Made by a program: the position numbers and the translations under genes
The notes under the pieces: model-generated
What the model was told of the DNA's origin: nothing
What the model saw: the letters and a program-made list of their open reading frames with translations, nothing else
Database searches by the model: none
Assembly: GCA_964552045.1 (NCBI GenBank)
Contig: CAZKFF010000004.1
Span: 20,368-84,367, forward strand
DNA from: an uncultured Candidatus Saccharibacteria bacterium
Lineage (GTDB): Bacteria; Patescibacteriota; Minisyncoccia; Phycocordibacterales; UBA918
Length of the DNA: 64,000 nt
Reading direction: 5' to 3'
Shown here: positions 2,950-47,392 of the stretch, one piece after another
Layout of the letters: each line of letters begins with the position of its first letter
Position numbering within the stretch: the stretch's first letter is position 1

Positions 2950-4686
2950 CTATCCTACTTCCTCTGTGCTTGTGCTTAATGCAGGTGGAATAATAACGTC
3001 GGGAATATGGCTAACATCCTCGGTTTCTGCTGTTGTTGTCGCGGTTGAGACGATCAGATCAGCCACAGCAATGTCCGGTGTGGAGGTCGCTGGCGCTTCG
3101 AGCGTTGAGGAAGCCGTCAGATCAAGCGTGGAATCTGCAATGGGATCCGTACTTGTTCCCGTCCCCATCCCCTGCGGCAAGGGTTCCAATTCCTCGATCT
3201 CTCCGTTCTTTGGAGAGTTTTTGTTCTGAATAAGCGCGCGTGTTTCTCCGGTCTGATCGGGGTCAGGCAATTCATCGGGGAGGTCCGCCGGTATACTGTT
3301 GAGCATGAACGCTTGTCCGTTATCAAAATCATATCCCAGAGTCTGCACATCGCCCTCGTCGTTCGTGCTGTCATAGACGAGTACGAAACGAGGGTTCTCC
3401 ACTTTCGCATTGCCGTCTGATTTCACATATTCGATATGCTCTGTCTTCTGGTCATAGACAGCGACCTGCCATCCGTCTGCGAACTGGCTCTGCCACACGA
3501 TATACCCTCCTCGTATGCTCGGAGACACGTCCTGCTGCGTATTGTCGGTCAGCCTGCGCAGTTCGGTTCCGTCGTCATACATGATCTCCCAGTTGTTATC
3601 GATCCATGCCTGATACATGGTGATATCGCCGTACGCGACCGGTTCCATGTTGTTGTACCGGGTGTTGGTCAGACGCACCTCTTCATTGGTACGCATATTG
3701 TACGACATGATCTGATAACGATCATTATAATTCGCATGCCAGACGATACGATCCGAGAGCGCATCATAGTACGGTGCGTTGTCGTCTATGAGATTCGATG
3801 TCAGCTGCGTCTCTTCCCCGTTGAGTCGCACAAAGATCTCCATATCGCCGTCTGCATCGGGCGCCGCAAATACCCCGTCTTCGGTGAAGGCGGCCGCATT
3901 CTCTGTACTGCTGCAGTAGTAGGCTCCATCACCGACGCTTGCGCATTCCTTGGTATCAAACTCATACGCATTTGCATTATGCTCGACATGCACCGCTTCT
4001 GTTGTGGTTGCTTCTGTCGCAGCTTCTGTTTCCGTCTCGAAACTGTCATCTTCTTCAGCGGTCACTTCTTGATCTTCTTCGGTCGGAGTTTCGTCTGATG
4101 GAGCAGCCGGTGTTTCCTCCTGCTCCGCTTCAGAGACCCCTTCGGGTTCCTGGGCTTCTTCATCCGATGAACCACCGACCGTCTGTACTGTCGTGGTTGC
4201 AGCAGATTCTGAAACCGCAGGCATGGTGCTGGTGGATGCCGATCCCTGCTGATTGTCGGTTCCAGTCTGCAATTCGGTTTCTGTAGCAGAAACTTCCTCC
4301 AGCTCTGTGTTCGCTGTTACCTCCGACGGTTCCTTTGCGTCAGAAATTATGTCTGGCACCGGTTCTGCCGCTTCTTCATCCGCTGTCGCTTCCTCAACGT
4401 CATGCATCTCACCTTCCAGCGCTTCTTCACTTTCTGTTTCCAAAATCTGCTGTGGCTCTTCTGCTGTCACAATGGCAGCTTCCTGCTGCGGCGCTGCTTC
4501 AATGTCTGGTTCGCTTTCTTCGGGAGCGACTGTTTCGGTCACTTCAGCTGCAAACGCCAGCGATACCGGCTGCAGAAGCAAAAAACCGAAGAGCACACAG
4601 ACACCAATGCGAACTGCAGCACTTTCAAACACCACGCTATAGAGCGTTGTTGTATATTTTTTTTGTTGATTGAGTGATATGCCCAT
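2950..4686 (-). CDS. Secreted/membrane-anchored protein with a long acidic Glu/Thr/Ala-rich N-terminal region and a PD40/TolB-like beta-propeller repeat region (YNDRYQIMSYNMRTNEEVRLTNTRYNNMEPV ... YDDGTELRRLTDNTQQDVSPSIRGGYIVWQSQ).
   Basis: 578-aa ORF. N-terminal hydrophobic segment (RIGVCVLFGFLLLQPVSLAFA). Repeated ~40-aa D/N-rich motifs resemble WD40-like PD40 repeats of TolB-family propellers. Confidence 0.55.
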   Translation of the reverse strand: MGISLNQQKKYTTTLYSVVFESAAVRIGVCVLFGFLLLQPVSLAFAAEVTETVAPEESEPDIEAAPQQEAAIVTAEEPQQILETESEEALEGEMHDVEEATADEEAAEPVPDIISDAKEPSEVTANTELEEVSATETELQTGTDNQQGSASTSTMPAVSESAATTTVQTVGGSSDEEAQEPEGVSEAEQEETPAAPSDETPTEEDQEVTAEEDDSFETETEAATEATTTEAVHVEHNANAYEFDTKECASVGDGAYYCSSTENAAAFTEDGVFAAPDADGDMEIFVRLNGEETQLTSNLIDDNAPYYDALSDRIVWHANYNDRYQIMSYNMRTNEEVRLTNTRYNNMEPVAYGDITMYQAWIDNNWEIMYDDGTELRRLTDNTQQDVSPSIRGGYIVWQSQFADGWQVAVYDQKTEHIEYVKSDGNAKVENPRFVLVYDSTNDEGDVQTLGYDFDNGQAFMLNSIPADLPDELPDPDQTGETRALIQNKNSPKNGEIEELEPLPQGMGTGTSTDPIADSTLDLTASSTLEAPATSTPDIAVADLIVSTATTTAETEDVSHIPDVIIPPALSTSTEEVG

Positions 4687-4950
4687 ACGGAATTAAGGTG
4701 ACAAACTCATCACCTTATCCACTTTCCATGTACGAACAAACAGCCTGACAAAAACAAATATCAAGCGATACAAAGTATTGCGTACTATTCTTTTGTTCTG
4801 TTGTGCCCTACGTTGTTCGAGCATGCGTTTAAACTGTGGCATTTAAACTCTTCTCGAGCATCTTGAGACTAATCCCGACACCCGAGATTATTCCCATCAC
4901 TCCTTAATTTTACTCTTTATGTGTAAAGCAAGCTGAAGGTTATCAACAAC

Positions 4951-5721
4951 TCAGCGTATAAATGAATCAGCTAAAATGATCCCAAAATCCCTGAATGTCA
5001 TGCTACCGTCCCCGTTGAAGTCATACACCACGCTCCTGTTGCCCCATGCGGACATGAACCGGCTGATATCGGCTATGGTCACGTTTCCATCACCGTCGAT
5101 GTCAGTTACGATAATGATCGCAGCTGCACCCTGAAGATTGACACCGTTTGCGCCCTCTGACGCGAGATCCTGTCCATCAGTGATATAGAGCGTTGCGGAG
5201 TCTCCATTAGTACGCTCGACAGATACTTTTGAACCGCTTCCATCCCCAGCGAGCAATACCACATCCTCAACCGAGACCTGGGCCAGGCCGGTTTCAGTGG
5301 CGCGTGCATTGACCGTGGCGATAAGGTGATCGCCTTTGAATCCGCGTCGGAACGTTCCTCCCTGCAAAATAACCGTATTGTTCTCAACATATGGGTCTTG
5401 GGTCCAGAGCGTTATCACCGACTCTCCAGTATCAATGCCGAGCACTTCGATCTGATCCTTCGGAAATGACAGACTGATGTCCACTGCATTGACTGCAACA
5501 TGCGCATTGACATACACGCCAATTTGAAACGTATCCCCAGCATGAAGCGCCTGTTGGGATGATTCGATATGGATATAGGATGTGCCGCTGCTTATAACTG
5601 CAGCAACGCTCAGAAGAGCGGCAAATGCGAACACCAGCGGAAAAGCGTACCGCACGGTCGAACTCCTGTTTGGCAAGCAGGGCGCGCAAAAGTAGTAGAT
5701 GATTTTTCGTATCAGGTTCAT
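4951..5721 (-). CDS. Small secreted protein with an N-terminal cohesin-like beta-sandwich module and a C-terminal type I dockerin (two Ca-binding repeats: DIDGDGNVTIADISRFMSAW / DFNGDGSMTFRDFGIILADSF). Candidate adaptor.
   Basis: Signal peptide. The region HAGDTFQIGVYVNAHVAVNAVDISLSFPKDQIEVLGIDTGESVITLWTQ...VSVEDVVLLAGDGSG resembles the cohesin-like modules of 6400..8160 and 38454..40004. The C-terminus matches the dockerin EF-hand-like duplicated segment (D.D/N.DG.V...D... twice). Confidence 0.6.
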   Translation of the reverse strand: MNLIRKIIYYFCAPCLPNRSSTVRYAFPLVFAFAALLSVAAVISSGTSYIHIESSQQALHAGDTFQIGVYVNAHVAVNAVDISLSFPKDQIEVLGIDTGESVITLWTQDPYVENNTVILQGGTFRRGFKGDHLIATVNARATETGLAQVSVEDVVLLAGDGSGSKVSVERTNGDSATLYITDGQDLASEGANGVNLQGAAAIIIVTDIDGDGNVTIADISRFMSAWGNRSVVYDFNGDGSMTFRDFGIILADSFIR

Positions 5722-6389
5722 AGATCGAGAAGCTCCTGTCGCCTCTTGTCTATTTGTATGGAGAGAAGCTCGAGCGAATCTTTGGTCTCTTGGCCCTGTG
5801 CAAGAAGTGCTTGCATCTCATCTGAACCGATCGGCGACTGTGCCAAAAGCGCATCAATGATATCGCCCTGTATCTGTACAAGCTGCGTCGAGAGCCGGCT
5901 CCGCTCCTGTTCCATCTCAACAAGTTCTTTCCAGCCTGAAACATTGTAGGTGATTCCGTACGCCTTTTTGTCGAACAAAGCGAGTATGCCGATGAGATCC
6001 TCGTATACTTCAAACTCGCGGGAAAGCCGCGAGACCATGACTGCCTTGCGCTCCGCATAAAAATTACCGCATGCGCTGAAGAGCGACTCCACTTCGCGCA
6101 GCTCTGGCCTACCAAGCTGCGAGAGCGAACTCAGGAGTGTATCGAACCGCTCACGATTCTCCGGGGTGCAGTCCTTGATGATCTCTTCGACGACCGCATC
6201 GGCTCCGTCACGCGCAGTCAATTCAGCAATGGCAGCGAGCCTCGTCTCCTGCTCCGCTATAGTGAGCTGTGTCTTAAGTATGTATTCCGACTGTGCATCC
6301 TCTATGTATAGGGACGCAGCAAGAAATACGAGAAAAATAAAGAAGAACGCAAGCGCCAGGATCTTCTTATGGGAAAGCAATGCATGCAT
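5718..6389 (-). CDS. Membrane-anchored coiled-coil hypothetical protein (N-terminal TM, helical/charged ectodomain).
   Basis: 223-aa ORF overlapping both neighbours by 4 nt (operonic). N-terminal hydrophobic helix ILALAFFFIFLVFLAASLYI. Confidence 0.45.
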   Translation of the reverse strand: MHALLSHKKILALAFFFIFLVFLAASLYIEDAQSEYILKTQLTIAEQETRLAAIAELTARDGADAVVEEIIKDCTPENRERFDTLLSSLSQLGRPELREVESLFSACGNFYAERKAVMVSRLSREFEVYEDLIGILALFDKKAYGITYNVSGWKELVEMEQERSRLSTQLVQIQGDIIDALLAQSPIGSDEMQALLAQGQETKDSLELLSIQIDKRRQELLDL

Positions 6390-6399
6390 AGTATGTTCA

Positions 6400-8160
6400 T
6401 TAGTCTACCAAATCTTCCACATCTCCTATCTCCTTTTCTACGCGTTTCTGCGAGACTGCAAGCGCCTGTGTAAGTGACTCGAAGAGCGCCGCCTCTGCTT
6501 TCGTGAGCTTCTTCGTTTTGCGCGCGCCTTCAAGCTGCGCCTTCTGAGACCCCAGCTCCTTCTGGAGTTTTTGGAACTCCGACGCCAGCATGGACAGAGC
6601 TTCTTGTGCCTCTTTGCTGACGCCTTTCTTCAATGACCGTATCCGAGCCAAGAGAATGACGCCGCCGAGGAATAATACTGCACACAATGCGGCAAGCGGT
6701 ACGACAACCGACAGTACACTCACCAGAAATCCGCCGAGCCGTATGAATCCCGGCTGCTGTACCGCTATACGGATCGGATCGGAGACATCGCTCTGCGCGC
6801 CGTACTGGTCAATCGCCACCGCAGTGAGTTCATAGACACCGAGTGAGAGCCGTCCGTCAGGGATGAAAACGAACTCGCCGCTCTCCGAGCTTGTGACCTC
6901 GAATTCTCTCGCTGCGGAAGCTGTCGATACGCCGAGCCCGGTTTGCGTGAGGGTGACCTTCACCTTCGCATTTGGACGCGTAATACCCTTTATAACCGGT
7001 ATGACCTGTTCGTTGATCTCTGTTGGATATTCGGTGAACTGCGGCTTGTCGAATGCGAGAATGCCAAAGGAGAATGTACTGATGATGCTGTTGCCAGCCT
7101 CGTCGAACGCCTCAATGATCGCGGTATGGTGGCCAGGCTCCAGTGCGGGAAGCATCAGCGTGGAGCTGCCGGTCTCATCAATGAACTCATACGGCTCCTT
7201 CCCGTCAAGCTGCACGAGGAAACGCCGCACGAGCGAGGTCGCATCTTCAGTCTTCAGTACGAGTGTCTGCACCGGACTGGAAAGATCAGCAGCCTCAGGC
7301 AGTGCTATCTCGAACATCGCCGGTTTTTCTGTGTCCACTGCCAGACGGTAATGCGCGACCTTGCCCCAGCCTTCCGCGTTTTTGAACTGCATATGGAAAT
7401 ACGACACGCCTTCATCAAGGTCTTCAAGCGTGATGTCGCGGATCGGTGTGTCATAGACCTTCGTCGGTATCGATCCCGAATTCTCATCAAGAAGCGTGCG
7501 GACTGCGGTCACACCCTCAGGTACTGTCCAGCTCAATGAGGCGGTCTTCTGCGTATACCACGCAGCACTGTCCGGATGCGTTTCGGACTGTATCTGTGGC
7601 GCTCCGGGCGTGTTCGCAGGCGCAATGTACTCGATGGTTTCGGGCTCCGGCACGACATCAGCGGCACTTATGGTGTACGCACCGCCATTCATCGACGTGA
7701 GCACATTTGTCCCCTTTCCGTCAGCTGCAAGGACCGACCCGTTCGTAAACGATACTTTAGGACTGCCGGCGCTGTTTGCTTTGAACGTAACAGAAATAAC
7801 CGTGCCATTGCTTCCGGTGTACCCCGTAGGACTGCCGCCGCTGAACGTGATGGTACCGTTGGCATTGGAGTACGAAGGTTCTGCTGTCCATAGATTGAAA
7901 ATGCTCCCTTTGCTCACCCCGATGACGCTTATCTCCCTCGGATTGAATGAAAGCGTTCCGTCGGCGGCATTGATCGGTTCGCCGCTTGTGTTGACCACAA
8001 CGCGTGCGGTGAACGTCGATCCCGCGGTATAGACCCCTGTGCCGGGTGCAAGTGAAAGCGTTGCCGCATGAGCAGAAGCGCCGCAGAGCACAAACAGCGC
8101 GATGAGCGTGATTTTTATTGCGATGAGACTATGTGTATGGTACCGGTGCATGTTATTCAA
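6400..8160 (-). CDS. Cohesin-like domain surface protein anchored by a C-terminal TM helix followed by a cytoplasmic coiled-coil tail.
   Basis: 586 aa. Signal peptide (...CGASAHAATLSL). N-terminal module TGVYTAGSTFTARVVVNTSGEPINAADGTLSFNPREISVIGVSKGSIFNLWT...GTVISVTFKANSAGSPKVSFTNGSVLAADGKGTNVL. C-terminal LGGFLVSVLSVVVPLAALCAVLFLGGVILLA TM plus KKGVSKEAQEAL...QKELGSQKAQLEGARK coiled coil. Paralog of 38454..40004. Confidence 0.6.
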   Translation of the reverse strand: MNNMHRYHTHSLIAIKITLIALFVLCGASAHAATLSLAPGTGVYTAGSTFTARVVVNTSGEPINAADGTLSFNPREISVIGVSKGSIFNLWTAEPSYSNANGTITFSGGSPTGYTGSNGTVISVTFKANSAGSPKVSFTNGSVLAADGKGTNVLTSMNGGAYTISAADVVPEPETIEYIAPANTPGAPQIQSETHPDSAAWYTQKTASLSWTVPEGVTAVRTLLDENSGSIPTKVYDTPIRDITLEDLDEGVSYFHMQFKNAEGWGKVAHYRLAVDTEKPAMFEIALPEAADLSSPVQTLVLKTEDATSLVRRFLVQLDGKEPYEFIDETGSSTLMLPALEPGHHTAIIEAFDEAGNSIISTFSFGILAFDKPQFTEYPTEINEQVIPVIKGITRPNAKVKVTLTQTGLGVSTASAAREFEVTSSESGEFVFIPDGRLSLGVYELTAVAIDQYGAQSDVSDPIRIAVQQPGFIRLGGFLVSVLSVVVPLAALCAVLFLGGVILLARIRSLKKGVSKEAQEALSMLASEFQKLQKELGSQKAQLEGARKTKKLTKAEAALFESLTQALAVSQKRVEKEIGDVEDLVD

Positions 8161-9223
8161 TATCCTCCTCTGTCAACTCTGCTTTTCTTCTGGTGCGGCG
8201 TCTGAACAGGAACACAGCGATACCTGCACATACCCCAAGCAGTGCCACTATGGATGCTGCGAGCACGCCTATGATAAACAGATTGTCCTCGGAGAACGTC
8301 CGTTGACTTTCTTCTGGTACGAGCGTCGCGATGTATTCATTGCCTGCCTTATCTATTGCACGCACGCGGATGGTGCTGTTAAGCGACTGGTCATCAAGCA
8401 CATATGGGCTCTTTGCCTCTACCCATGGCGCGGTCTCCGCGCCCCAGCCAAAGAGGTTTTTCGAATCAAGCGGCTCTTCGATGACCTCGTAGTGATCGAC
8501 GCCAGATTGCTTGTCGGTAGTGTTGAAGGAGATGTGGTATTTTCCGAATTCATTGGGAATCCTACTAAGTGAAATGCTGAACTTCTCCGGCGGCAACTGG
8601 TCATTTGCGACCGCTTCCTGCCAGGGGTTCTGCACAGTTGCCCCCGCCTCCTTTGCCAGTAGAACTGAAGCACCAAACACCTGCGGTTCCACCCGTGTTC
8701 CAAAGCCGTCGTTGAGCAGCACGTGCGTCTGCGGATCGAAACCGATCGAGGCGACATTGCCGCTTTCGCTTTGACCGATCTGCAAACCCGGAGACTGGAA
8801 CAACAGATCGATAACATTGTTGGTCAGGCGCGGATCACCCGGGATACGTCCGCAGTAGCCATTGGGTATGCCTCCGGCGAAGGTGATCGTCCGATTCTCC
8901 TTGTTGATGACCGGCTCTTCTACCCAGAGGTTGAGAACGGAATTGCCCCGCGATGTATCAACCGGTTGGATGTTTTCGCTGTACGTAATAACCGCATCGA
9001 CGACGTTGACGCATTCACCTTCGTCTGTGTCGAGGCGCACCGAGATCACCATAGTGTCGCCGCGCTTAAGCTCAGCCTGATTAGGGTCCATGTACAAGCT
9101 GGCAGCATGAGCTTCGTGGGCAACACACAAGAGCAATACCTGTAGAGACAGCAGAAGCACACCTTTTTTCATGTAATTAAGTATACCGTGCACTTTTGCT
9201 TCAGGACTGGAATTGCTGTGCAT
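8153..9223 (-). CDS. Cohesin-like domain surface protein with a C-terminal TM anchor (LFIIGVLAASIVALLGVCAGIAVFLF-RRRTRRK).
   Basis: 356 aa. The likely start is the internal MKKGVLLL signal peptide. N-terminal module ASLYMDPNQAELKRGDTMVISVRLDTDEGECVNVVDAVITYSENIQPVDTSRGNSVLNLWVEEP follows the same pattern as the other cohesin-like modules. 8-nt overlap with the upstream gene. Confidence 0.5.
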   Translation of the reverse strand: MHSNSSPEAKVHGILNYMKKGVLLLSLQVLLLCVAHEAHAASLYMDPNQAELKRGDTMVISVRLDTDEGECVNVVDAVITYSENIQPVDTSRGNSVLNLWVEEPVINKENRTITFAGGIPNGYCGRIPGDPRLTNNVIDLLFQSPGLQIGQSESGNVASIGFDPQTHVLLNDGFGTRVEPQVFGASVLLAKEAGATVQNPWQEAVANDQLPPEKFSISLSRIPNEFGKYHISFNTTDKQSGVDHYEVIEEPLDSKNLFGWGAETAPWVEAKSPYVLDDQSLNSTIRVRAIDKAGNEYIATLVPEESQRTFSEDNLFIIGVLAASIVALLGVCAGIAVFLFRRRTRRKAELTEEDIE

Positions 9224-9255
9224 AGTCCTCTCTTCTGAGCTTTACCCAAACAAAA

Positions 9256-9286
9256 AACCTACTCGTGGTGGGAGATAGGTTTTTTG
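9256..9286 (-). terminator. Rho-independent terminator-like hairpin with A/T runs on both sides (aaaaaacctactcgtggtgggagataggtttttt), downstream of the 9422..10558 gene.
   Basis: GC-rich imperfect stem flanked by an A-run and a T-run. It lies in the 198-bp gap after a monocistronic minus-strand gene. Confidence 0.4.
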
Positions 9287-9421
9287 CAGCTCTTGCTATT
9301 GCAATTTTCGCACCAAACAAGTATTCATCATGCGGTGCACAACTATTCCTTCTTTGGTGTACAAGAGAAATAAATCGTTGCTGTTCAAGATACGCGAATA
9401 CTCGAACAGGTCATTATTTCC

Positions 9422-10558
9422 TTAAAAAGTAGGAGTTGCTATATAGGTAAGCGTAGTAGTGTAGTCGTCTCCCGCCTCCTGGAGGCTTGAGATCTCCACC
9501 TTGTAACCTACGCGTGCTGTACCTTCGCCAGTGCCGGCACCATTAGCTGGTCCGTTATGGCTCATCACGACGCGCGGAGTGGTACTCGCTGCGGCAAACT
9601 CGCCGGAGCCGAATTCATCTCCTGCATCGCGTGTTGTGTCTGAGTCATTCGAAGTGAAGCCCCAGTGACCATAGGTGTTCTCGCTGCCCATGACTTCAAC
9701 TGGTGAAGCCCACGCAGTTGGAGTATTGGTATCGGAACCTTCGACAAACCCGTCGATGTCAGCGCCAGTTGAAGACTGGAGCGCCTGGTCGAGCTGAACG
9801 GTTACAACGTATCCGTTGGCAGCGTTGGTGTTTACCGTAAGGTCCTGTGCAGTTGTAGTCGCATTCCCGTCAGTGAGTGCGCCGAATGGGATCGACGTCG
9901 TAGACGCCGCACCCGTAGTGGTTGCACCATTGACCGCCTGGTTTGCTCCTACCCCTGCAACAGTGAACGTGAAGATCGTATCCACAGCTGCAGTTACCTG
10001 CACACTGTTGATGATCGCCACCCGGGCTGTACCTGAATCGGCAGAACCTGCGGTTATGTCGATATCGTACGCGCCTTCCGCTGCAGGGTTCGAGATCTGC
10101 GTATCTCCTGCAGATCCGAATGTAGCGTTTGTACCAATTTCGATCGTCACTGTTGCGTTCGCGCCCAATGCGGCGTCAACGCTGGTGAGCGTGATGGATG
10201 ATGCTGTGGTAGCAACTCCCCACTGTTCACCGGACTGGTCTCCTTCGATGACCAATGTGTAATCGGACGTTGAGGCAAAGTCGATATCTTCAACCCCAAT
10301 GGACGAAGTATCAAAGTTGCCGTCAAAATCGATCACGATTGATTCACCCGATGCTATGCCTGTCGGCGTAGTAAAGGATATGGTGTGGTTTGATCCGGCG
10401 CTTGGCGCTGAATCAGTGAGCGTATCGCTGACATTGGTGAGGTTAGCGGCGCTCGCAAATTGGAGATTAGGAATCCCTAATGACCACAATGTGATCGCAA
10501 GACCCCCAATTATTGCAATAGTTTTGAGCAATGTAACGGTTTTTTCCGTTGTGTACAT
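9422..10558 (-). CDS. Secreted Thr/Ser/Gly/Ala-rich structural protein (paralog A). Conserved N-terminus (SDSAPSAGSNHTISF) and conserved C-terminal motif TTLTYIATPTF.
   Basis: 378 aa. SPI-type signal peptide (…LQFASAANLT). Paralogous along its full length to 45940..47058. Monocistronic and followed by a terminator. Confidence 0.6.
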   Translation of the reverse strand: MYTTEKTVTLLKTIAIIGGLAITLWSLGIPNLQFASAANLTNVSDTLTDSAPSAGSNHTISFTTPTGIASGESIVIDFDGNFDTSSIGVEDIDFASTSDYTLVIEGDQSGEQWGVATTASSITLTSVDAALGANATVTIEIGTNATFGSAGDTQISNPAAEGAYDIDITAGSADSGTARVAIINSVQVTAAVDTIFTFTVAGVGANQAVNGATTTGAASTTSIPFGALTDGNATTTAQDLTVNTNAANGYVVTVQLDQALQSSTGADIDGFVEGSDTNTPTAWASPVEVMGSENTYGHWGFTSNDSDTTRDAGDEFGSGEFAAASTTPRVVMSHNGPANGAGTGEGTARVGYKVEISSLQEAGDDYTTTLTYIATPTF

Positions 10559-10956
10559 AGCTCTTACGTTGTTTTAACTTACATTACTTCGCCATACCTC
10601 CTTTGTATGAAAAGGTATCCGAAGCGCAAGCCCGCTGTAATACGGCAGACTCAAATTGCGCATCAGGTCTCCACGCCTGCTGCGCAGAAACTAATGTAAG
10701 CACACTTGCCGCATAACATCCGGCTGCAGATGCCCGCACGGTACGCGAACCGTGCGCAGCGGTTCTAAAGGACCGCCTCTGCAACAAGTACATAATTATT
10801 GTAGCTCGCGTTGCAATGAATTGATGAGTTTCTCCTGTGCACAACCAGTCGGTGAACCTCGTGCACTGTCTATTCCAACAGGAGCAGTTCATGGATATAT
10901 GTCCCTCAGTATGATCTATCTCAAAAAACCTTCGGAAGCTCCACAGGTTCGCTTCC

Positions 10957-12102
10957 TCAGCCTGTCCAGTTAAACAACAATATGGAGAAATCCTCCAGGC
11001 CGACATTGCCGTTGCCGTTAATATCTGCTTTCGGATCGGAATCACCTCCCGAGGTCTGCCACCAGAATATGAGTATGGAAAAGTCAGTGAGGTTTACGGA
11101 ACCGTCACGGTTAAGGTCAGACGGAGTCGCGGCGGTGCCATTCACACCGACAAACAGCTGCACGGTGGTGCTGAAACTGCTTTCGGTAGTGAGCGTTCCG
11201 CTGCCGAGAATGAACCGCGCTCGTGCGGTGTGTTCGTCCGCAGAGAGGCCTGAGGTGGGGTAAGAAATGGTCCATGCGCCATTTGTTCCTGAGGTTGCAG
11301 AAAGCACCTCGTCACTGTCGTCGATATGCACCTCAACGCGTGTATTCGGGATCGTCTGTCCGGAAAAGACGACCGTATCGCCCGGGTTGATGGTCGCGTC
11401 ACTCACCGAGAGCGTCGGCGGAATGAGCACGCCAGACACATTCGTGATGGCACCCTGCGTGACATCGAAGGTCGTATTGTATGTCACTGACCGCACCCGG
11501 TTCAAATCAAACGACCAGAAGCCGAGCGAGACAGTGCCTGGAGACGCATTGGTAGCGAAATCGAACCGTCCAGAGCTGTCGGCGCGAACCGTACCCACTT
11601 CCTTGGCGTCGAGAAGCACATGCACTGTCTGATTGGGATAACCCCGACCGGTGATGCTTACCTGCGTATCGCCGAGCTCATCATCGCTTCCCCCGCTGCT
11701 TGAAGAGCCGCCGCCTGAAGAGCCGCCGCCGCCGCTCCCTGCTACTTCTACAGTACAATCCGCCGCACAAAAGTCACCGTCATCATTGTTGCCATCATCG
11801 CATTCTTCACCATGCAGGGTCTGCAGAATCGCGTCACCGCAGTATGGTCCGTAGTTGCAGTCAACGTCGCATTGTCTCCCGATGATCGTCGTGCTGTACA
11901 CGCCTGTCTCTCCCAGTACGTCGCACTCTTCTCCGTCGTCCACGAGCGCATTGCCGCAGATAGAGAGCGTCAGGGTTGTTGTCGCAATGAACCCGGGTGT
12001 GAGCTGTGCATATGCCACAGGAGTACACACTGCAATAGTGAGCGCAACGCCAAGAAGCAATAATGTCTTATGCATTAATCTCAACCGCGTGCGCATGCCC
12101 AT
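10957..12102 (-). CDS. Secreted dockerin protein: Myxococcus-type cysteine-rich repeats (CGNALVDDGEECD...CGDAILQTLHGEECDDGNNDDGDFCAADC), a Gly/Ser linker, an Ig-like middle region and a C-terminal type I dockerin (DLNRDGSVNLTDFSILIFWW / DINGNGNVGLEDFSILLFNW).
   Basis: 381 aa. Signal peptide. The Cys-rich repeat matches the CGDG..GEECDDGN pattern. The dockerin has a duplicated Ca-binding loop. Paralogous in middle and C-terminal parts to 40597..42507. Confidence 0.7.
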   Translation of the reverse strand: MGMRTRLRLMHKTLLLLGVALTIAVCTPVAYAQLTPGFIATTTLTLSICGNALVDDGEECDVLGETGVYSTTIIGRQCDVDCNYGPYCGDAILQTLHGEECDDGNNDDGDFCAADCTVEVAGSGGGGSSGGGSSSSGGSDDELGDTQVSITGRGYPNQTVHVLLDAKEVGTVRADSSGRFDFATNASPGTVSLGFWSFDLNRVRSVTYNTTFDVTQGAITNVSGVLIPPTLSVSDATINPGDTVVFSGQTIPNTRVEVHIDDSDEVLSATSGTNGAWTISYPTSGLSADEHTARARFILGSGTLTTESSFSTTVQLFVGVNGTAATPSDLNRDGSVNLTDFSILIFWWQTSGGDSDPKADINGNGNVGLEDFSILLFNWTG

Positions 12103-12105
12103 ACG

Positions 12106-13065
12106 TTATTGCATCCGCCGATTTACCTTTCTCTGGCGTGCGGTATGAACGCCGAAGAGTAGGAGAGCGAGCAATGCAAGTATCGGAAGTATGACCGAAA
12201 CCTGGTGTGCCAATGAAAGTCCGAGGAATCCGAATCCGGCAATCTGCAGTGTTCCATACGGAAGAATATTGAGGTTCACTTCTCCCTCTTGTTTCACTTC
12301 ATCATCATTGAATATCTGATAACGCGCAATATAGGTGCCTGCCGGCAGACGCGTCGGCAGTTCGGCCACGATCTCTTCGGTTGCGTACGGAGCTACCTTC
12401 TCTATTTTTCCTTTGTTCCGGACGTCTTCAAGAAGCACATTGCCCGTAGCATCATATATCTTGAATGCAACCTTTGACGGAGCAACATCAATGTTACCAG
12501 TATTCTCAAGGAGCATACCGAACCTGATCTTTCCAGGGAAATACAGCCACGCGAACTTATGTCCTTCATTGAGATCAGATATGTTTATCTTGCGGATGCG
12601 GAAATCCTTGATCTCCTTGTCGATGACGCTGAGGTCGATATCAACCTGTGCACCAAGTGAAATGTTGACTGCGCCGGCCGAAACCTCATCATCAACTGCT
12701 CCTGTTTTGATACGGATCGCACCCGTGTAATTTTTGAACTCAGCATCTTCCGGCACCTTCACACGAATAGTCATGGGAACCTTCTGCTCACCGCGTGGCA
12801 GTTCGAACTCTGTGCCTTCCACGATCTCGATCCAGTCCAGTATCTCAGGAGCATCGACGACTACAGTTGCTTTCAGCGGCACGTTCGGATCTCCGCGGAC
12901 AAGAAGTATCTGCTGTTCATAGGTCGAGTTGCGGGTGAGGCTCGTGTTGCGTACGTATGGCGGGGTCACACCAAAACCAGCGAGGGCTAAATCGGCTCCA
13001 AGTATCACAAAGAGAAGTATTGCTATGCAGAACGATTTAGCAAAGTTCATTATGTATCCCGACAA
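12106..13065 (-). CDS. Cell-surface protein with signal peptide and a C-terminal TM anchor. Its fold is like the DUF916/DUF3324 proteins of Gram-positive WxL-type surface loci.
   Basis: 319 aa. The likely start is the internal MNFAKSF. C-terminal hydrophobic helix plus basic tail (ILPILALLALLLFGVHTARQRKVNRR). Architecture parallels 44668..45741. Confidence 0.45.
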   Translation of the reverse strand: MSGYIMNFAKSFCIAILLFVILGADLALAGFGVTPPYVRNTSLTRNSTYEQQILLVRGDPNVPLKATVVVDAPEILDWIEIVEGTEFELPRGEQKVPMTIRVKVPEDAEFKNYTGAIRIKTGAVDDEVSAGAVNISLGAQVDIDLSVIDKEIKDFRIRKINISDLNEGHKFAWLYFPGKIRFGMLLENTGNIDVAPSKVAFKIYDATGNVLLEDVRNKGKIEKVAPYATEEIVAELPTRLPAGTYIARYQIFNDDEVKQEGEVNLNILPYGTLQIAGFGFLGLSLAHQVSVILPILALLALLLFGVHTARQRKVNRRMQ

Positions 13066-13135: not shown

Positions 13136-13168
13136 TGGCTTGCTCTTATCCTTTCGAAAATTTTACGG

Positions 13169-15025
13169 CTACCACTGATTTGGATTGCTTACCGCAGCGT
13201 AGAATGTGTTTTCACCGGTGTATGACCCCGCAAGTGTGAGCGTGATCGGAACATGGATACCCCAGTAGGTGGTTCCTGTTGCCTGAGTACTGGTTGCCGT
13301 TGACTTGAATACATTCAAGTCAAGCCGCTTGTTTGTAGTAGATGAGAGTGTGTTGCCAGTTGCAGTTGCCGTACCGTATGACACTGTCGAAGTTGCATAC
13401 ACTTGGAAGCTCTCCGCAATGGTTGAAGTAGAGGAATTAGGACAGGTCACAGAGGTACTGTAGTTGATACACATTGATTCTCCCGTAAGCAGTTCGTCAA
13501 TACCCACATTTCCAGTCGCCCGTATGTCTGTTGTGGCAGAGAGCGGATCAGTCTGTTGCCCAGGCTCGAGTGAACCATACGGGATAGCGAGCGTATCGAG
13601 AGCCATAGACAGGAAGGCATTGAGATCTTGTCCAATCGCACTTTGGGTGAATACACTCACCGCACTGTCATCATCTATGGCAGAAACTGCTGCTCTCCAA
13701 TCTTCGCCGGCATAAAGCGAAGTCGAAGCCTGGTCGGTCGGGTCTGCGATGTACCACAGTGGGAATGTACACTCCCATGTCTGTGTGGTGTCCGTTGCAC
13801 CTCCACAATCGGAAGGTGTCGTTGTTGCGGCACATGAAAGATTCCAGGTTGTTGTCGCGACGGTGCTCGTATAACAATTGTTTGCATTGTATTCGCCTGA
13901 TGCATCACAGGAGGTCGTGCCTACACCCGAACGGTACACTGACAGTGCGTAATCTACGATCTCATCAGTTGCGGATGAGTTCTCGCAGCTATTATTGTCT
14001 GTTGCAACAAAGCTGAGTGTGAATCCGGTCGTCTCACCCGATTCCTGTGTAAGCGTAATATCTCCTCCATTATTGAGTGTGATTTGCGCGGCGTTTATAG
14101 AAGGAGCGGCATTGTCAACGGTGAGAACAGAGTCTGTGCCTTGCGTAGCTCCTGATGCCTCATGCCCGTGATTGTCGACAATGAAGCCAAAGGCTGCGTA
14201 GTTCTGGTCCTGGGTCGGGATTGGTATGACGTAGGTGGCTGTCGGGTCAGATGCAGACAAGGTTGAAGTCGCTAATGTGAGATCATCACAGGTATCTGTC
14301 GATGTGCTGAAGTTTGATGATGAGCAGACGATGAGCTGCACCGTGTCATTGGTCGGTACTGTGTCAGGGTCAGATGATGTCGCAGTAAAGGTAACGGTCG
14401 CGCCCGGAAGCACTGGGGAATCGTCCCAGAACGCGGTGAAGGTCGGACGACGGTTTACGTTGAATGGAGATGATGTCGTACCTGTTCCCTGTTTGAATGA
14501 TGCGTTACAGCGCGGATTGACCAGCACGGAGTCGCAGACCCAGGCGAACCAGTCATTTTGCTCGTTGAACGGAGCGACTTCTGTGGTGGTCGTTGCGGCA
14601 GTTGCCTGCGTACCGCTGATCGTCAGAGAAGAAACAGCCCATTGCAGCGATCCTCCACCACAGGTCGGCGCAGCTCCCGGGTTCGCAGTTGGCGCAGTTG
14701 ACCCGTCACAGATAAGCAGATAGTAGCTCTCCGCGTTCGAGTCTGTTGCAGTTGCGATCCACTGCACCGGTGATCCTGAATTAGTCGGTGTTGTTGTTGA
14801 AGATTCGGTCAGCTCCTGCGCATCCACAGTCCATTGTGGCGGTGTGTTGAGCACGGTCACTGATGTGGTCGCCTGGCTTTGGGCTTCCGCATGGTTCAGT
14901 TCCTGTGCGCCTAAGTTGAGGAAAAATGCTACCGCGAACACAAACACGCCCAAAAGCGCTGTTATCACAGTTATTTTCCCTGCCGTGTTTATATAGTGTG
15001 GCAGCTCTTTCATGTTGTACGACAT
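13169..15025 (-). CDS. Secreted Thr/Ser-rich protein whose C-terminal ~300 aa (from ~14113 down) is a Cys-containing domain homologous to the extreme C-terminus of the giant protein.
   Basis: 618 aa. Signal/TM (ITVITALLGVFVFAVAFFLNLGA). Alignable blocks with giant-protein residues ~6090-6350: YRSGVG..C...NNCY, Y.ADATD....Y.GE.W.AAV, YWGI..P...NP. Confidence 0.55.
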   Translation of the reverse strand: MSYNMKELPHYINTAGKITVITALLGVFVFAVAFFLNLGAQELNHAEAQSQATTSVTVLNTPPQWTVDAQELTESSTTTPTNSGSPVQWIATATDSNAESYYLLICDGSTAPTANPGAAPTCGGGSLQWAVSSLTISGTQATAATTTTEVAPFNEQNDWFAWVCDSVLVNPRCNASFKQGTGTTSSPFNVNRRPTFTAFWDDSPVLPGATVTFTATSSDPDTVPTNDTVQLIVCSSSNFSTSTDTCDDLTLATSTLSASDPTATYVIPIPTQDQNYAAFGFIVDNHGHEASGATQGTDSVLTVDNAAPSINAAQITLNNGGDITLTQESGETTGFTLSFVATDNNSCENSSATDEIVDYALSVYRSGVGTTSCDASGEYNANNCYTSTVATTTWNLSCAATTTPSDCGGATDTTQTWECTFPLWYIADPTDQASTSLYAGEDWRAAVSAIDDDSAVSVFTQSAIGQDLNAFLSMALDTLAIPYGSLEPGQQTDPLSATTDIRATGNVGIDELLTGESMCINYSTSVTCPNSSTSTIAESFQVYATSTVSYGTATATGNTLSSTTNKRLDLNVFKSTATSTQATGTTYWGIHVPITLTLAGSYTGENTFYAAVSNPNQW

Positions 15026-17796: not shown

Positions 17797-19314
17797 TTAT
17801 TGTCCTCTGATATTCTTGACCCAGCCGAATGTTGATTCAAAGTTCTCGAGGATGAGGTCAATGATGTTCTTTTCCTGGATCGGCGTGAATAAGACGAAGT
17901 TCTCTGACTGCACCTCATTGCCTGCCTCGTCCGCACAATTGAGCCAGAACTGATACACCGTCGCCGAGGCGAAGTCCACAATGACCTCAACATGGCGTTC
18001 GGAATAGCTTATGGTCTCAGGTTCTATGATGGTCGGCTCAACTCCCCCAGCCACACCCTCACGGTAAGTCATCGTACAGAATGCCGGCTCATCGGTCTTC
18101 CACTCAACAATGCTCTGCACGCGCGATTCTCCTCCCGGGAACAGCGTGGATTCATTGGTCACGTTGCTGATGATCGGCGGTGCCGTGTCTTTGACGGTGA
18201 TAAAGGTGATCGGCTGGCTCCTCACCCGGTCTCCGCCGCCGTTCTCTGCAATGACAAAGGCGACATACCGCGTACCGAGGGTAAGGTCGCTCAGCCGCAT
18301 CTGGTGCGTGGTGGCAAGCGTCGGCCGTCCTTTGGAGTTTTGTGCACCGGTAGTGAGGTCTTGGTATTCGATGAGTGCCTTGGAAGGCACGGTGGTGTCC
18401 CACGCGAGCGTGGCTGCATTCTCTTCGACCTTCACGATGCGAAGATTGCGGATCTCCGGAAGCGATGCCTTGGTCTTGAAGGTGTAATCACGGCTTTCGC
18501 CGGTGATGCCGAAGGAATCCGTTGAGACGACTTTGAAGTGGTATTCAGTGAACGATTCAAGTCCGATGATACGCACCTCATGGTCAGTGACGAGACCGTC
18601 GGTACTTGACTGGGAGTAGACGTAGCTTCCAGCGGTATATTCATCGGTCGGCGAGAAAAACACTGTTGAGTCTGACTCGCGGTCAGTGGTCCAGCGGACG
18701 ATCGCAGAGGTCGTTTCGGGAATGACGGTTGGAGGCCCGACAATAGTGAGGTCTTCGGTGATGCCCTGGATCGCCTTGACCACTTCATTGAGTATCTCCT
18801 GCAGCTGCTGCGGGTCGGTGATCTCCTGCACCTGCTGCTTTATCTCCTCGACAGTAGTCTCGCTTGACTGTCCTTCACCAGCCTGGGAACCCTGACCCTG
18901 ACCCTGCGCTTCCGCCTGGCCGGAACCCTCAGCACGCGGCGTGCCGGTTGTCTGCACTTTATAATCGGCGGAAATACCCTGGTTACCATCCTCATCTGCG
19001 GAAACAACGCGGAAATAGTACACGCGACCGGGATCGAGCTCGTCGAGTGTGATGCTGTGTACGGTCTTGTCGACCGCAGGGTCGCGGACGATGCCGTAGT
19101 CCTCCTGCAGACCGTAGTTGATGAGTGAATCCGATTCCTCATCGGTCTCCCAGGTGACCGTCACGGTTGTGTCAGAGACATCACCGATCTGGACATTGGA
19201 TATCTCTGGCGCATCAGTATCAGACTGGGCAAAAGCGGCCGGTACTGAGAGCAGCTGGAGCAAAAGCGCCAGGGAGAGAAGTAATGAGGAACTGCGCATG
19301 GTTCTGTTAATCAT
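17797..19314 (-). CDS. Secreted protein with three fibronectin type III-like domains, first gene of the ABC operon.
   Basis: 505 aa. Signal peptide (…LSVPAAFAQSD). FN3-like blocks such as ISNVQIGDVSDTTVTVTWETDEESDSLINYG...YYFRVVSADEDGN occur three times. Confidence 0.6.
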   Translation of the reverse strand: MINRTMRSSSLLLSLALLLQLLSVPAAFAQSDTDAPEISNVQIGDVSDTTVTVTWETDEESDSLINYGLQEDYGIVRDPAVDKTVHSITLDELDPGRVYYFRVVSADEDGNQGISADYKVQTTGTPRAEGSGQAEAQGQGQGSQAGEGQSSETTVEEIKQQVQEITDPQQLQEILNEVVKAIQGITEDLTIVGPPTVIPETTSAIVRWTTDRESDSTVFFSPTDEYTAGSYVYSQSSTDGLVTDHEVRIIGLESFTEYHFKVVSTDSFGITGESRDYTFKTKASLPEIRNLRIVKVEENAATLAWDTTVPSKALIEYQDLTTGAQNSKGRPTLATTHQMRLSDLTLGTRYVAFVIAENGGGDRVRSQPITFITVKDTAPPIISNVTNESTLFPGGESRVQSIVEWKTDEPAFCTMTYREGVAGGVEPTIIEPETISYSERHVEVIVDFASATVYQFWLNCADEAGNEVQSENFVLFTPIQEKNIIDLILENFESTFGWVKNIRGQ

Positions 19315-19322: not shown

Positions 19323-22300
19323 TTAATCGCCTATTGCGTAGAAGATGTTAGTTCCCTGGTGCGGATTGCTTGCCACGCCGTACGGTATCTCGATGCCCCA
19401 GTAGACGACGTCAGTAACCGGGCTTGAGCTTGATGTCGGCTTAGTGAGATCAACCTCAAGGTCGGTAGCTGTGGTCGAGGATAGTGCGCTGCAAGATGTA
19501 CATGCAGTGTAGGTGAATGTCGAGGTTGCAAACAACTGTTCAGACGCGGGGATGAACGAGGATCCGCCGTCTGTGAGGTCGGTTCCCTCAAGTTCGATAT
19601 CGATCGGCACATTGCCGAGGTTCTGTACGGTCGTGGTCGGATTGTACGAACCGGTTGTCGAGGATACTGCAAGAGGCCCGTAATTGATCGCTGCGTCAAC
19701 ATCAAGCGCATGAAGTGTGAGGAGCTCGATCTGCGTAGTGGTCGGCGTTGAGCCGATGTCGATGCCTCCTCCCTGGTCGGAGACCTCGACCGCAGCAAGC
19801 CACTCTTCACCTTCATAGGCGCTGCCTGCGTCGGTTGCATCAGCATGGAAGTAGAAATCAGCGCTGCAGGAGATCGAACAGCTGTTTCCGGAACAGCCTG
19901 ACAGTTCACATAAAGGTGCAGCAGATACGTAACAGTTGTTATTGTCCGGCGTACATGCCGCACCCACGCCGCTGCGGTACATTGTTGCGGTTGCATGTGT
20001 GAGATCGTCAAAGCCGTTGAGGTCGGTTACCGTACCCGTGGTATATACCGTTGTGGTCGATCCCGGCACGAGAGCGATGGCGGCACCCCCATTGAGCGAC
20101 ACATTCGTGACGATCGGATCGAATCGGAGTTCGAGCTCTGCAACGCTCAGATATGTATCAAGCGGATCGCTTGCATCAGTCACCCGCAGACAGTATGAAG
20201 GCGCTGAGGCATTGATGGTCGGCGTGAGGGCATATTCCAGTTCGGTATATTCGTCCTGGTCAATGGTGAGTGCAGCAGTGGTGTTTGACGGATCTTCAAC
20301 GACCTTACCGGAAGTGAACTGTCCATCTACCTCAAAGAGGAGATCAGTGGTAGCTCCATTGTCGGTGAGATGGCTCGATGCCTGCATACACAAAGGCGAA
20401 CTGCCGCACGAGCTCTGTGGAGGCACAATCGCATAGCTTGCGCTGCTGACCGCCTCACAACTCGGTGCTGCGCCTTTTGTCGCATATTCAATGTCGAATG
20501 TCTGGCCGGTGATCTGCAGTCCGGAATTCTCGACAGCCACACGCAATCGGGCAATATCCCCGTGCGTGTAGGCATATGATTCGTCGAGGTCAGCAGCCCA
20601 GCTTGCTCCCCCGCTCACCTGTTTGTCGCCGAAGTAGACTGTCGGTTCGGTATCGACGTGCGGCCGCGCACTATAATTGTCCCATCCACCGTTCTGGAAC
20701 CAGAAGGTGAAGCCGATGCCGCCCGAGGTGTATGTATTGTCGCTTGCGGATGCCGTCGCTGCCGTAGCTCCATCTTTTGAGAGCGTCACATCCATGTCCC
20801 CGCCAGTCTGCCAGTCGATCTCAACCTCGTACCATCCCGAACCTAAGGTCGGGAAGTCAACCGTACTTGAGGCAAGAACGGTTCCCGACGAATCAGTGTT
20901 CTGTGCGTTCTCCACGATCGACATGCGATCGACGCCGAACTGTTCAAGACAGATGGCGTAGTTCTGATTGCTGGTTACGGGCGATTGCACACCGAAGAGT
21001 GTACAGACCTCATCGCCGTTGCCTGCGTCGGTATCTACATACTGCATATACCGGATGATCTGTCCCTGGCTCACCGTAAGTCCAGTGTCCGCAATACCGT
21101 CAGTGGCTTTATCGCTCTCATGTGCGGTCGCATCAAGTCCGAACGAGCCGCCATAGGCAAAGCTGCTGCCGACATTAAATAGGCTTGTATCGCCGCTGTA
21201 CTCGGTTATGTTTCCGTCCTCGAAGTCGTCTGCGGCGATGAATGCGTCTGCACTCGAGCTTGTGGACGAAGCAGTTGCATTGTCGAAGTACATGTAAAGC
21301 GTTGTTATATCTTCAGCAGCAAGGCTCGGCACCTGCACCCATATGTCCGCGTCGGCACTTGCGGTGTACCGCTCAATGAAGTGCGGGATGGTGGTTGTTC
21401 CGCTTGCATCAGTGAAGCGGAGATCATCAAAGTCTCCCTGCATCGCGGCATCATAGGCAACAGACAATTTGACTGCTGCATCGGTATAGGTTGCTGCGTC
21501 AGGATTCTCCAACCGGACCCGCTTGCGCGCACCCCATGATGCATTGAACCACTCGCTGTCCGGCACATCGACGCCGCCGTCATCGTGGCGCCAGCGGTAG
21601 TGCGTCTGCTGGGTGAGGAGACACGAACTGTCGTTCCATCTGATGGAACCGCAGGCGGTCGCGCCATCATCATCGTAATCCTCACCGGCAAGATTACCCG
21701 TGTGGCTGACGAACGCCCAGGCATTGGTCGTCGTGCCGATGAGCGTGACGTTCGTACCCGTGATCGCCGTGGTCGTTGCAAAACGGTTTCCAGAAATGAC
21801 CTTCGACGCATTCGCATCAAGGGTCGCGGATGACAGCGTGATAAGGCTTCCGCCGCTGACTGCAAGTTCAAAGTCTCCCTGCGACAACGAAGTAATGAAC
21901 GGTGTGCCGGAGAACAGCAGCCCTTCGGCATTGAGATCCCGGTACCGATAATAGAGTGCGTTGAATGTGCCGTCAGACACCGCGAACGCATAGGTACCGC
22001 TTCCCTGGTTCTGGACGGTTGTGCTGTTGCCGGAAGCGCCGATCATGTAAAGCGTGCCCCCATCCACGGTTGTGGTTGCATTGCCGGCAATAGAGACTGT
22101 CACTGCCCGCTCGATACCCGCCAGACTGGCGCCGTCAAAGTCGGTGGCATAACTCCAGTATTCAGTTGTCGTGCTGACATGGAAATCGCCGTATATGGTG
22201 AGCGCTCCGTCACTTCCTCCATGATCCTGCGAATACAGCGAAGCTGACGGTTGCACTGTAGTCGTATCCGCGCTTGAGTTCCATACGCGGATATCAGTAT

Positions 22301-47058: not shown

Positions 47059-47392
47059 GTTCTTTGGTATTAAATTATTTTTAAATAACTGTTGTGACGA
47101 TGTCTCACAAAAAACATCATCAGTCCCGGCAGAGATCATATGTGGAGAATAGAACGGACGCTTTATAAAAGGTGTAGCCTTAAACGCCCTATCTATCTTT
47201 TTGATCCCTATCGGTCTACATATAATGATACAAGGACATTGCCAGCCTGTCTTAAATGTTGTGTTGATAAGTATGTCCTGTATGCCGCGCGCGTATCCTT
47301 TCTTTTCTCTATGCTTCACACTCAAAAGGTCTGAGGCATTTCTTAATTATTTAAAGTCATAAAGTACACGTGTCCTTTTGACCGTTAGCGGC

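Follow-up and report, generated by a model that had tools for sequence, protein, structure and literature searches.

We analysed the cohesin and dockerin modules encoded in a window of 64,000 nucleotides (nt; the whole stretch studied, with G+C about 53%) of contig CAZKFF010000004.1, from an uncultured Candidatus Saccharibacteria bacterium. The original prediction had described window positions 4951-12102 as a cohesin-dockerin surface-display locus, built from five open reading frames (ORFs) at 4951..5721, 5718..6389, 6400..8160, 8153..9223 and 10957..12102. All five are present at these positions, all on the minus strand. However, the locus is not self-contained. It is part of an array of 12 collinear genes (L-K-J-I-H-G-F-E-D-C-B-A, window 2950-19314; cluster A) that also encodes a pilin candidate, a chaperone-like protein and an ATP-binding cassette (ABC) transporter. 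Alongside lie a second gene set (cluster B, 38454-47325, upstream of the array) and the gene of a giant protein. The array is collinear in 74 loci, and the five ORFs fall within its 3' half. The genes are given below, with protein lengths in amino acids (aa) and TM for transmembrane:

2950..4686, minus strand: A, 578 aa, acidic, beta-propeller repeats; the usual end of the array (61/74 loci)
4951..5721, minus strand: B, 256 aa, N-terminal tail, hydrophobic helix, cohesin-fold module and duplicated calcium-loop dockerin-type module; accessory
5718..6389, minus strand: C, 223 aa, N-terminal TM helix (aa 10-28), the rest without annotation, two conserved Cys; accessory
6400..8160, minus strand: D, 586 aa, signal peptide, Pfam Cohesin, FnIII/Big_13 Ig-like region, TM helix, cytoplasmic tail; core
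8153..9223, minus strand: E, 356 aa, signal peptide, cohesin-fold module, FnIII-like domain, TM helix; core
9422..10558, minus strand: F, 378 aa, Pam-type pilin candidate; accessory in cluster A
10957..12102, minus strand: G, 381 aa, signal peptide, Cys-rich head, Gly/Ser tether, two Ig domains, type I dockerin; core
12106..13065, minus strand: H, 319 aa, signal peptide, beta-rich ectodomain, C-terminal TM helix; core
13169..15025, minus strand: I, 618 aa, N-terminal hydrophobic segment, Thr/Ser/Cys-rich ectodomain, Cys-rich C-terminal domain; core
15089-16297, minus strand: J, permease with MacB_PCD and FtsX; core
16300-17622, minus strand: K, ABC ATPase with a 200-aa C-terminal extension; core
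17797..19314, minus strand: L, 505 aa, secreted, several FN3 domains; conserved, and first in the array
19323..38375, minus strand: giant protein, 6350 aa, DUF2341 (three times) and Ig_Rha78A_N, Thr/Ser/Gly-rich, 38 Cys
38454..40004, minus strand: D', 516 aa, paralogue of D, Pfam Cohesin (nt 39531-39875), FnIII/Ig, TM helix, cytoplasmic tail
40031-40537, minus strand: small Hsp20-family gene between G' and D'
40597..42507, minus strand: G', 636 aa, chimera of pilin N-terminal domain, Ig-like domain, long Gly/Ser tether, two Ig domains and type I dockerin
42562-43368 and 43466-44269, minus strand: two tandem FGE-sulfatase (formylglycine-generating-enzyme-like) genes between H' and G'
44668..45741, minus strand: H', 357 aa, WxLIP_PGBD, C-terminal TM helices; chaperone-like paralogue of H
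45940..47325, minus strand: F', second Pam-type pilin

The 74 loci with the array came from a scan of species-representative genomes, and nearly all are labelled as Patescibacteria lineages. The genomes are mostly of Parcubacteria. The labels are Parcubacteria group names (such as Kaiserbacteria, Nomurabacteria and Paceibacteria) and many uncultured Saccharibacteria, with a few given only as 'bacterium' or as groups outside the Candidate Phyla Radiation (CPR). Protein lengths are near-constant across the loci: typically about 500 aa for L, 440 for K, 402 for J, about 620 for I, about 318 for H, about 375 for G, about 382 for F, about 350 for E, about 585 for D, about 225 for C, about 250 for B and 500-690 for A. 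Gaps in the 74-locus gene table are mostly contig ends. This conservation rules out chance for the locus. Every component bears an N-terminal hydrophobic segment, and D, E and H have C-terminal TM helices. The array proteins are almost always named 'hypothetical protein' in the source records, with an occasional dockerin-domain label. A scan for consensus promoters and terminators of sub-operons found none above shuffled expectation. Two of the contigs, L010 (JBLIMJ010000001.1) and L052 (JBLHGD010000004.1), were deposited as 'Acidimicrobiales bacterium' and 'Candidatus Azotimanducaceae bacterium', and are probably mis-binned or mislabelled contigs of metagenome-assembled genomes.

Regarding the cohesins, four proteins of the window carry one module each. 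D passes the Pfam Cohesin model (PF00963) over aa 45-153, with 39.2 bits against a gathering score of 24.1, and so does D' (30.6 bits vs 24.1). From their own sequences in this window, the N-terminal modules of E and B gave no match in Pfam or among PDB sequences, and searching PDB sequences with the profile of the E family matched no cohesin. The B family profile reached dockerins among the PDB sequences, and one cohesin very weakly; 12 of 46 B orthologues match Pfam Cohesin by themselves (E-value <= 0.01). BLASTP relates both proteins to D (E-value 9e-14 for E and 2e-11 for B), hidden Markov models (HMMs) built from orthologues join B, D, E and D' at E-values of 1e-12 to 1e-22, and hhalign gives 99.9% for D-E, 99.0% for B-D and 97.4% for B-E.

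Predicted structures point the same way. The AlphaFold2 model of E (predicted local distance difference test, pLDDT, 73.7) has a beta-sandwich at aa 41-193, a second beta domain at 215-301 and a long TM helix. Its top 50 Foldseek matches in the PDB are all cohesins (E-values 2e-11 to 2e-5, template-modelling score about 0.7-0.76). The best one is the cohesin and FnIII double module of Clostridium perfringens GH84C (PDB 2w1n), which the cohesin and FnIII tandem of E mirrors. The B model is weaker (pLDDT 65.7, core 79-90). Its best Foldseek matches are mostly cohesins (E-values 1e-4 to 1e-2) and include a CipA fragment bearing both a cohesin and a dockerin. We thus confirmed that the three modules of D, E and B, which the original prediction had called cohesin-like, are cohesins, by Pfam for D and by profile homology and predicted fold for E and B. 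The features of these three proteins are:

7645-8064, minus strand: cohesin of D (Pfam)
6652-6708, minus strand: TM helix of D, aa 485-503 (hydrophobicity)
6403-6651, minus strand: charged cytoplasmic tail of D, with a conserved SRKTKKLTKAE motif
8639-9106, minus strand: cohesin-fold module of E, aa 40-195
8309-8611, minus strand: FnIII-like domain of E
8225-8281, minus strand: TM helix of E, aa 315-333
5590-5646, minus strand: hydrophobic helix of B, aa 26-44
5227-5580, minus strand: cohesin-fold module of B, aa 48-165

The C-terminal TM helices claimed for D and E are there, as is the membrane location claimed for C, by its N-terminal helix. For the coiled coil proposed in the tail of D, aa 479-585 gave weak ArlX/FlaX matches only. 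B had been described as a small secreted protein carrying both modules, with the architecture that an adaptor scaffoldin would have. Both modules are present in this one protein. A conserved 25-residue N-terminal tail (S-x-TVRY-x-FP) precedes its hydrophobic helix, and B is probably membrane-anchored rather than secreted.

The E family comprises 1453 database clusters and is strongly conserved. It has the invariant motifs GGIPNGYCGRIxGDPRL, NDGFG, FNTTDKQSG and DKAGNEY, plus two invariant Cys. Such motifs and Cys pair are unusual for a cohesin, and the loop at aa 129-133 is of low confidence in the model. The motifs and this loop suggest a specialised, perhaps non-dockerin, binding site.

According to an inventory with family HMMs, the dockerins of the window are exactly three, those of B, G and G', and its cohesins exactly four, those of B, D, E and D'. 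All lie inside clusters A and B and none elsewhere, with one of each kind in cluster B. The features of the dockerin proteins are:

4954-5115, minus strand: dockerin-type module of B, aa 203-256
10960-11127, minus strand: type I dockerin of G, aa 326-381
11743-11985, minus strand: Cys-rich head of G (TIGR02232/DUF4215), near-invariant
40600-40767, minus strand: type I dockerin of G'
41875-42477, minus strand: pilin N-terminal domain of G', aa 11-211

G passes Pfam Dockerin_1 (PF00404; 29.5 bits vs 22.9) and TIGR02232 (37.2 vs 20.8), and it also has DUF4215 and two Ig-like domains. This bears out the type I dockerin and the Myxococcus-type Cys-rich repeats claimed for it. The third dockerin, in the ORF at 40597 (G'), passes Dockerin_1 too, with 29.5 bits vs 22.9. 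The dockerin of B stays below this cut-off (19.7 bits vs 22.9) and also matches EF-hand models, and the B profile scores slightly higher against EF-hand proteins than against solved dockerins. At the family level, 41 of 46 B orthologues match Dockerin_1 (E-value <= 0.01), and hhalign gives 95.7% between the B C-terminus and the G dockerin.

Two 12-residue calcium loops were found in 56 of 65 B orthologues and in 49 of 56 G orthologues. Positions 1, 5 and 12 of the loops are an invariant or near-invariant D (N at position 5 in the second loop of G). In both families, position 3 is D or N with a minority of S, G stands at position 6, and a hydrophobic residue at position 8. Thus neither of the two outcomes that would have told against the original prediction was seen: the cohesins have HMM and fold support, and the calcium-coordinating pattern is conserved. 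The loops are spaced by 31 residues in G and by 27 in B, which is short, and the B model has helices at 216-228 and 243-255 after the loops. The repeats of G are nearly identical (NL[IT]DFSILIFWW / [GS]LEDFSILLFNW) and recall the symmetric, dual-binding type I dockerins. None of the three dockerin proteins has an enzyme domain and no glycoside hydrolase was found in 2950-47325, as the original prediction had stated for its locus.

G' links the dockerins to the pilins. Family HMMs matched its residues 11-211 to the N-terminal domain of the pilin family (E-value 2e-13), and its residues 361-636 to the Ig and dockerin tail of G (E-value 2e-60). The G' family is widespread and of constant length. 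We also considered G' as a chain-terminating pilin that donates its linker strand, and this is unsupported, the FTFTV strand being absent.

Cluster B consists of F', H', two FGE-sulfatase-like genes, G', the Hsp20 gene and D'. A pilin, a chaperone-like protein, a dockerin protein and a membrane cohesin are each represented once. The order pilin-WxLIP-G'-Hsp20-D'-giant was also found in the complete Nomurabacteria chromosome CP060229.1 and in a Kaiserbacteria-type contig. In the Nomurabacteria chromosome, cluster B and the giant gene are set directly upstream of the 12-gene array (943-965 kb vs 906-928 kb). The place of the giant gene between clusters A and B is kept in other genomes; in those of Nomurabacteria and of Kaiserbacteria type, the orthologue found there encodes 6700-7800 aa. 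The last 260 aa or so of the giant protein are homologous to the C-terminal domain of I (E-value 5e-37), also in other genomes; this Cys-rich domain of about 290 aa is common to both proteins. Altogether, the superlocus covers 45 kb of the window; in the complete Nomurabacteria genome its extent is estimated at 55-60 kb, or about 6% of the chromosome.

For the pilin candidates, the reference is the Pam pilus of Ca. Mycosynbacter amalyticus (Troman et al. 2026, bioRxiv 10.64898/2026.03.03.709456). Its pilin has a beta-sandwich at the N-terminus, a linker strand that is donated and, at the C-terminus, a truncated Ig-like domain, and PamA Ser356 bears an unidentified modification (bioRxiv 10.64898/2026.03.03.709456). 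The system also includes PapD-like chaperones with C-terminal TM helices and an FnIII-containing membrane tether, PamR; Pam pilins occur mainly in Saccharimonadia and Microgenomatia (bioRxiv 10.64898/2026.03.03.709456). The only family match of F is to the C-terminal domain of these pilins (NCBIfam NF058581, CPR_Pam_pilin_C), which 30 of 40 F-family members match (best E-value 1e-7). F carries a candidate donor strand at the expected position (aa 186-203, VQVTAAVDTIFTFTVAGV), with a conservation of 0.80, among the top five stretches. Together with the C-terminal strand, it belongs to the best-conserved segments of F, as reported for Pam pilins. The alignment of F' (residues 90-461) with F covers 383 positions, with 52% identity. 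Because it begins at residue 90 of F', the true start of this protein probably lies some 90 codons after the listed TTG. A gap of 398 bp (window 10559-10956) lies upstream of the pilin gene F; at this gap, the locus of GCA_043719295.1 (L003) has an inserted Trp-repressor-like gene on the opposite strand (L003 6718-7128).

H' passes Pfam WxLIP_PGBD (32.4 vs 27.3 bits). H is its paralogue, and its architecture matches the membrane-anchored chaperones of PamC/D type; a chaperone role for H may be inferred from its topology and from its paralogy to the WxLIP protein H'. Sequence and profile searches of the PDB with F, H and H' found no pilin or chaperone relative. As to the WxL domains of Firmicutes, the pilin family had no Pfam WxL match and the other proteins had no WxL-domain match. 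The WxLIP_PGBD match of H' hints at a kinship between Pam-type membrane-anchored chaperones and WxL loci.

J and K form a type VII, MacB-type ABC transporter, with an FtsX-type permease carrying the MacB periplasmic core (MacB_PCD 66.5 bits, FtsX 66.5 bits) and a separate ATPase (ABC_tran 112.3 bits). Transporters of the type VII family pass ATP-driven motion to extracytoplasmic partners. The C-terminal extension of K (window 16303-16902) is conserved, with 69% identity, and has no relative in Pfam, NCBIfam or the PDB.

Three loci of a divergent sublineage separate the core of the array from its accessory parts. L071, L075 and L076 keep I-H-G-E-D intact, without F between G and E and with unrelated ORFs after D, where C, B and A would be expected. 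L071 and L075 also show the C-terminus of the giant protein and L-K-J upstream, and the L076 contig starts at I. The invariant core is thus I, H, G, E and D, plus the ABC pair and L wherever the contig reaches. B, which the original prediction had likened to an adaptor scaffoldin, looks accessory, since these loci lack it together with C and the pilin F.

Mean pairwise identities were compared over the 34 genomes that have every module. They reach 0.92 for the K ATPase, 0.84 for the G dockerin, 0.83 for the J permease, 0.74 for the G head, 0.69 for H, 0.65 for the D cohesin, 0.62 for the F C-terminal domain, 0.60 for the B dockerin, 0.57 for the E cohesin and 0.52 for the B cohesin; C, at 0.34, is the least conserved. 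The extracellular modules evolve like machine parts, unlike host-specific adhesins. The partners had been seen as adhesins, but the dockerin and the head of G change as slowly as the ABC permease, and this does not fit variable adhesins. A surface or attachment role, as originally proposed, is plausible.

We suggest that the cohesin and dockerin modules are fixed connectors in a conserved cell-envelope apparatus of Parcubacteria, probably a surface fibre, with no platform for interchangeable cargo, and we give this reading a probability of roughly one half. The modules are fixed and slow-evolving and have a pilus-type subunit, a giant surface protein and an ABC motor encoded beside them, so that most likely they keep an attachment organelle of the cell surface together. 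The reading draws on the domain identities, the conservation, the synteny in 74 genomes, the paralogous set with its single dockerin and single cohesin, and the pilin-dockerin chimera.

In the proposed mechanism, D, E and D' would sit in the cytoplasmic membrane by their C-terminal helix, each presenting one cohesin on FnIII/Ig spacers. The duplicated dockerin of G, and that of G', would plug into one such cohesin in a calcium-dependent way and tether a head domain through two Ig domains and a Gly/Ser linker. This head would be the near-invariant Cys-rich module in G and the pilin N-terminal domain in G'. In most lineages, B could add a further link, with its N-terminal membrane anchor, one cohesin and one dockerin. 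The assembly would cooperate with the pilins F and F', the chaperone-like H and H', protein I, the giant protein and the MacB-type transporter, which could supply export or mechanical work. The end product may be a surface fibre or an attachment organelle. The cohesin-dockerin binding and its pairings, the composition of the fibre and the role of the transporter are what we infer from sequence in this scheme.

Several observations weigh against the modules being connectors of such an apparatus. F covers the full NF058581 model (2-148 of 148) with only 24.7 bits, against a cut-off of 55, and F' reaches 19.4 bits against the same cut-off. H itself has no match in Pfam (WxLIP_PGBD is not reached) or in the PDB, so that 'chaperone' rests for this protein on paralogy and architecture. 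F is absent from cluster A in the three divergent loci, and the pilus is therefore not the invariant product. G' has neither the conserved FTFTV donor strand nor the C-terminal domain of the pilins. The covariation of evolutionary rates between dockerins and cohesins singled out no specific pairs (best r 0.32-0.56). The C-terminal domain of I and the giant protein, tried as the acceptor of Pam pilins (tip subunits), was rejected, with 0 of 44 matches to NF058581 and 1-5% in hhalign; it has in common with the pilin family only a short IP[FY]GxLxxG motif. Finally, the paper on the Pam operon makes no mention of a cohesin, a dockerin or an ABC transporter (bioRxiv 10.64898/2026.03.03.709456).

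A more specific version is tentative. The whole region, of about 18 genes, may encode an attachment organelle in which cohesin-dockerin membrane sockets anchor a donor-strand pilus, a giant adhesin of 6000-7800 aa, or both. The MacB-type transporter would give the mechanical or export step, and G' would join the filament to its socket.

An alternative that we consider unlikely is an autonomous cohesin-dockerin display system, in which D and E (with B as adaptor) show the adhesins G and G', and the pilin, the chaperone-like protein and the transporter are merely co-regulated neighbours. The cohesin and dockerin modules are genuine, G is built like an adhesin (Cys-rich repeats, Ig domains and a flexible tether), and the core set persists without F in the three divergent loci. 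Moreover, cohesin-dockerin modules outside cellulosomes are already known, with pairs in all three domains of life, as outlined by Peer et al. (2009). However, the two or three dockerin proteins of the window, all in the clusters, are a fixed set and not a cargo repertoire, and the head and the dockerin of G are among the slowest-evolving parts, unlike host-facing adhesins. Display alone also leaves aside the pilin N-terminal domain on G', the duplication as a unit of a pilin, a chaperone-like protein, a dockerin protein and a cohesin protein, and the rigid gene order and lengths over 74 genomes, with the ABC pair, I and H included.

It is still more doubtful that the modules do not bind each other, the cohesin-like sandwiches serving strand exchange, carbohydrate or host-envelope binding or homo-oligomerisation and the calcium loops being stabilisers or sensors of EF-hand type: E and B fall short of Pfam Cohesin and the E profile finds no PDB cohesin by sequence, the invariant motifs and Cys pair of E, absent from D, suggest a specialised function, the B C-terminus, with its short loop spacing, scores as well as or better with EF-hand models and proteins than with dockerins, and cluster A has three cohesins for two dockerins, but D, D', G and G' exceed curated Pfam thresholds, the B C-terminus is homologous to the G dockerin by the hhalign result given above, the two module types strictly co-occur, including the 1:1 pair of cluster B, and the G repeats are near-identical (DFSILIFWW / DFSILLFNW).

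As fixed connectors of an envelope apparatus, the modules resemble those of cellulosomal and non-cellulosomal cohesin-dockerin systems (Clostridia scaffoldins, 2w1n, Archaeoglobus fulgidus 2xdh) in the cohesin beta-sandwich and in the duplicated 12-residue calcium loops of the dockerin. B recalls an adaptor scaffoldin in carrying both modules, and the cohesin bearers are anchored to the membrane or surface, as in those systems. However, there are no carbohydrate-active enzymes and no multi-cohesin scaffoldin, so the locus is not a cellulosome. Anchoring is by a C-terminal TM helix and not by SLH domains or sortase, and the set is fixed and slow-evolving (three cohesins, two dockerins) within an operon that also encodes a pilin, a chaperone-like protein and a MacB-type ABC transporter. 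A further difference is the host, which belongs to the ultra-small bacteria of the CPR. Earlier work noted isolated dockerin proteins in a Saccharibacterium (SEML1_0315, essential) and in a giant ORF of Omnitrophota.

The likeness to the Pam system, whose counterparts were compared by description, lies in the build of F (N-terminal domain, conserved candidate for the connecting strand, and C-terminal match to CPR_Pam_pilin_C), in the adjacent Sec-exported, beta-rich protein H with its C-terminal TM helix, as in PamC/D, and in the TM-anchored FnIII proteins E and D, which recall the tether PamR. Neither system has a dedicated trans-envelope secretin or usher. In contrast to Pam, F does not reach the curated cut-off, some lineages can do without the pilin, and the lineage is Parcubacteria; cohesin, dockerin, MacB-type transporter and giant protein are present here, and none of them is described in the Pam operon. 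The locus thus corresponds to a Pam system in part only.

H' shares WxLIP_PGBD with the WxL/Csc loci of Firmicutes, as well as a CscA-type build (signal peptide, beta domains, C-terminal TM helix) and a place in a surface-protein cluster. Unlike in those loci, no WxL-domain protein was detected here, and H' alone reaches WxLIP_PGBD. Compared with known transporters of MacB, FtsEX or LolCDE type, K has its 200-aa extension, and cohesin, dockerin or pilin partners are unreported in the literature searched. Our literature search found no published link of cohesins or dockerins to a CPR pilus and no description of this array.

Other genes stand within and around the clusters. The Hsp20 gene between G' and D' is also found in L079, L081 and L082, and the paired FGE-sulfatase genes, which might modify a surface protein, in L081 and L082. 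Immediately upstream of cluster B lies a UmuC/Y-family polymerase gene (window 47393-48631, minus strand). The same three loci as for Hsp20 likewise have an IMS-family neighbour of cluster B, with a Peptidase_S24 (LexA/UmuD-like) gene nearby in L079. Downstream of A, an open frame at window 2-3010 (minus strand) runs for more than 1000 codons past the left end of the window. Its counterpart in L003 exceeds 2063 aa, and a second giant protein therefore probably flanks the array. A class F sortase, above its cut-off with 171.6 bits, is encoded at 53050-53709 (minus strand), beside ORFs of 379 and 1128 aa without annotation (53781-58351) that may be sortase substrates. This region is a surface-anchoring system separate from the array in the same window.

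The array bears on how the thousands of uncultured Parcubacteria species attach to their hosts. The Pam pilus, reported in 2026, is the only structurally defined CPR-specific filament, and its anchoring is known from a prediction-based model only. The array offers a concrete and testable mechanism for anchoring CPR surface fibres and would extend the Pam-type system to another major CPR class, the Parcubacteria. Moreover, the small cohesin modules and the near-invariant dockerin lend themselves readily to expression, so the central claim could be tested in vitro without culturing. Cohesin and dockerin have so far been known as the glue of extracellular enzyme complexes. If our reading is true, they would act here as membrane sockets, and the array would exemplify their use as fixed structural components of an envelope machine rather than as enzyme scaffolds.

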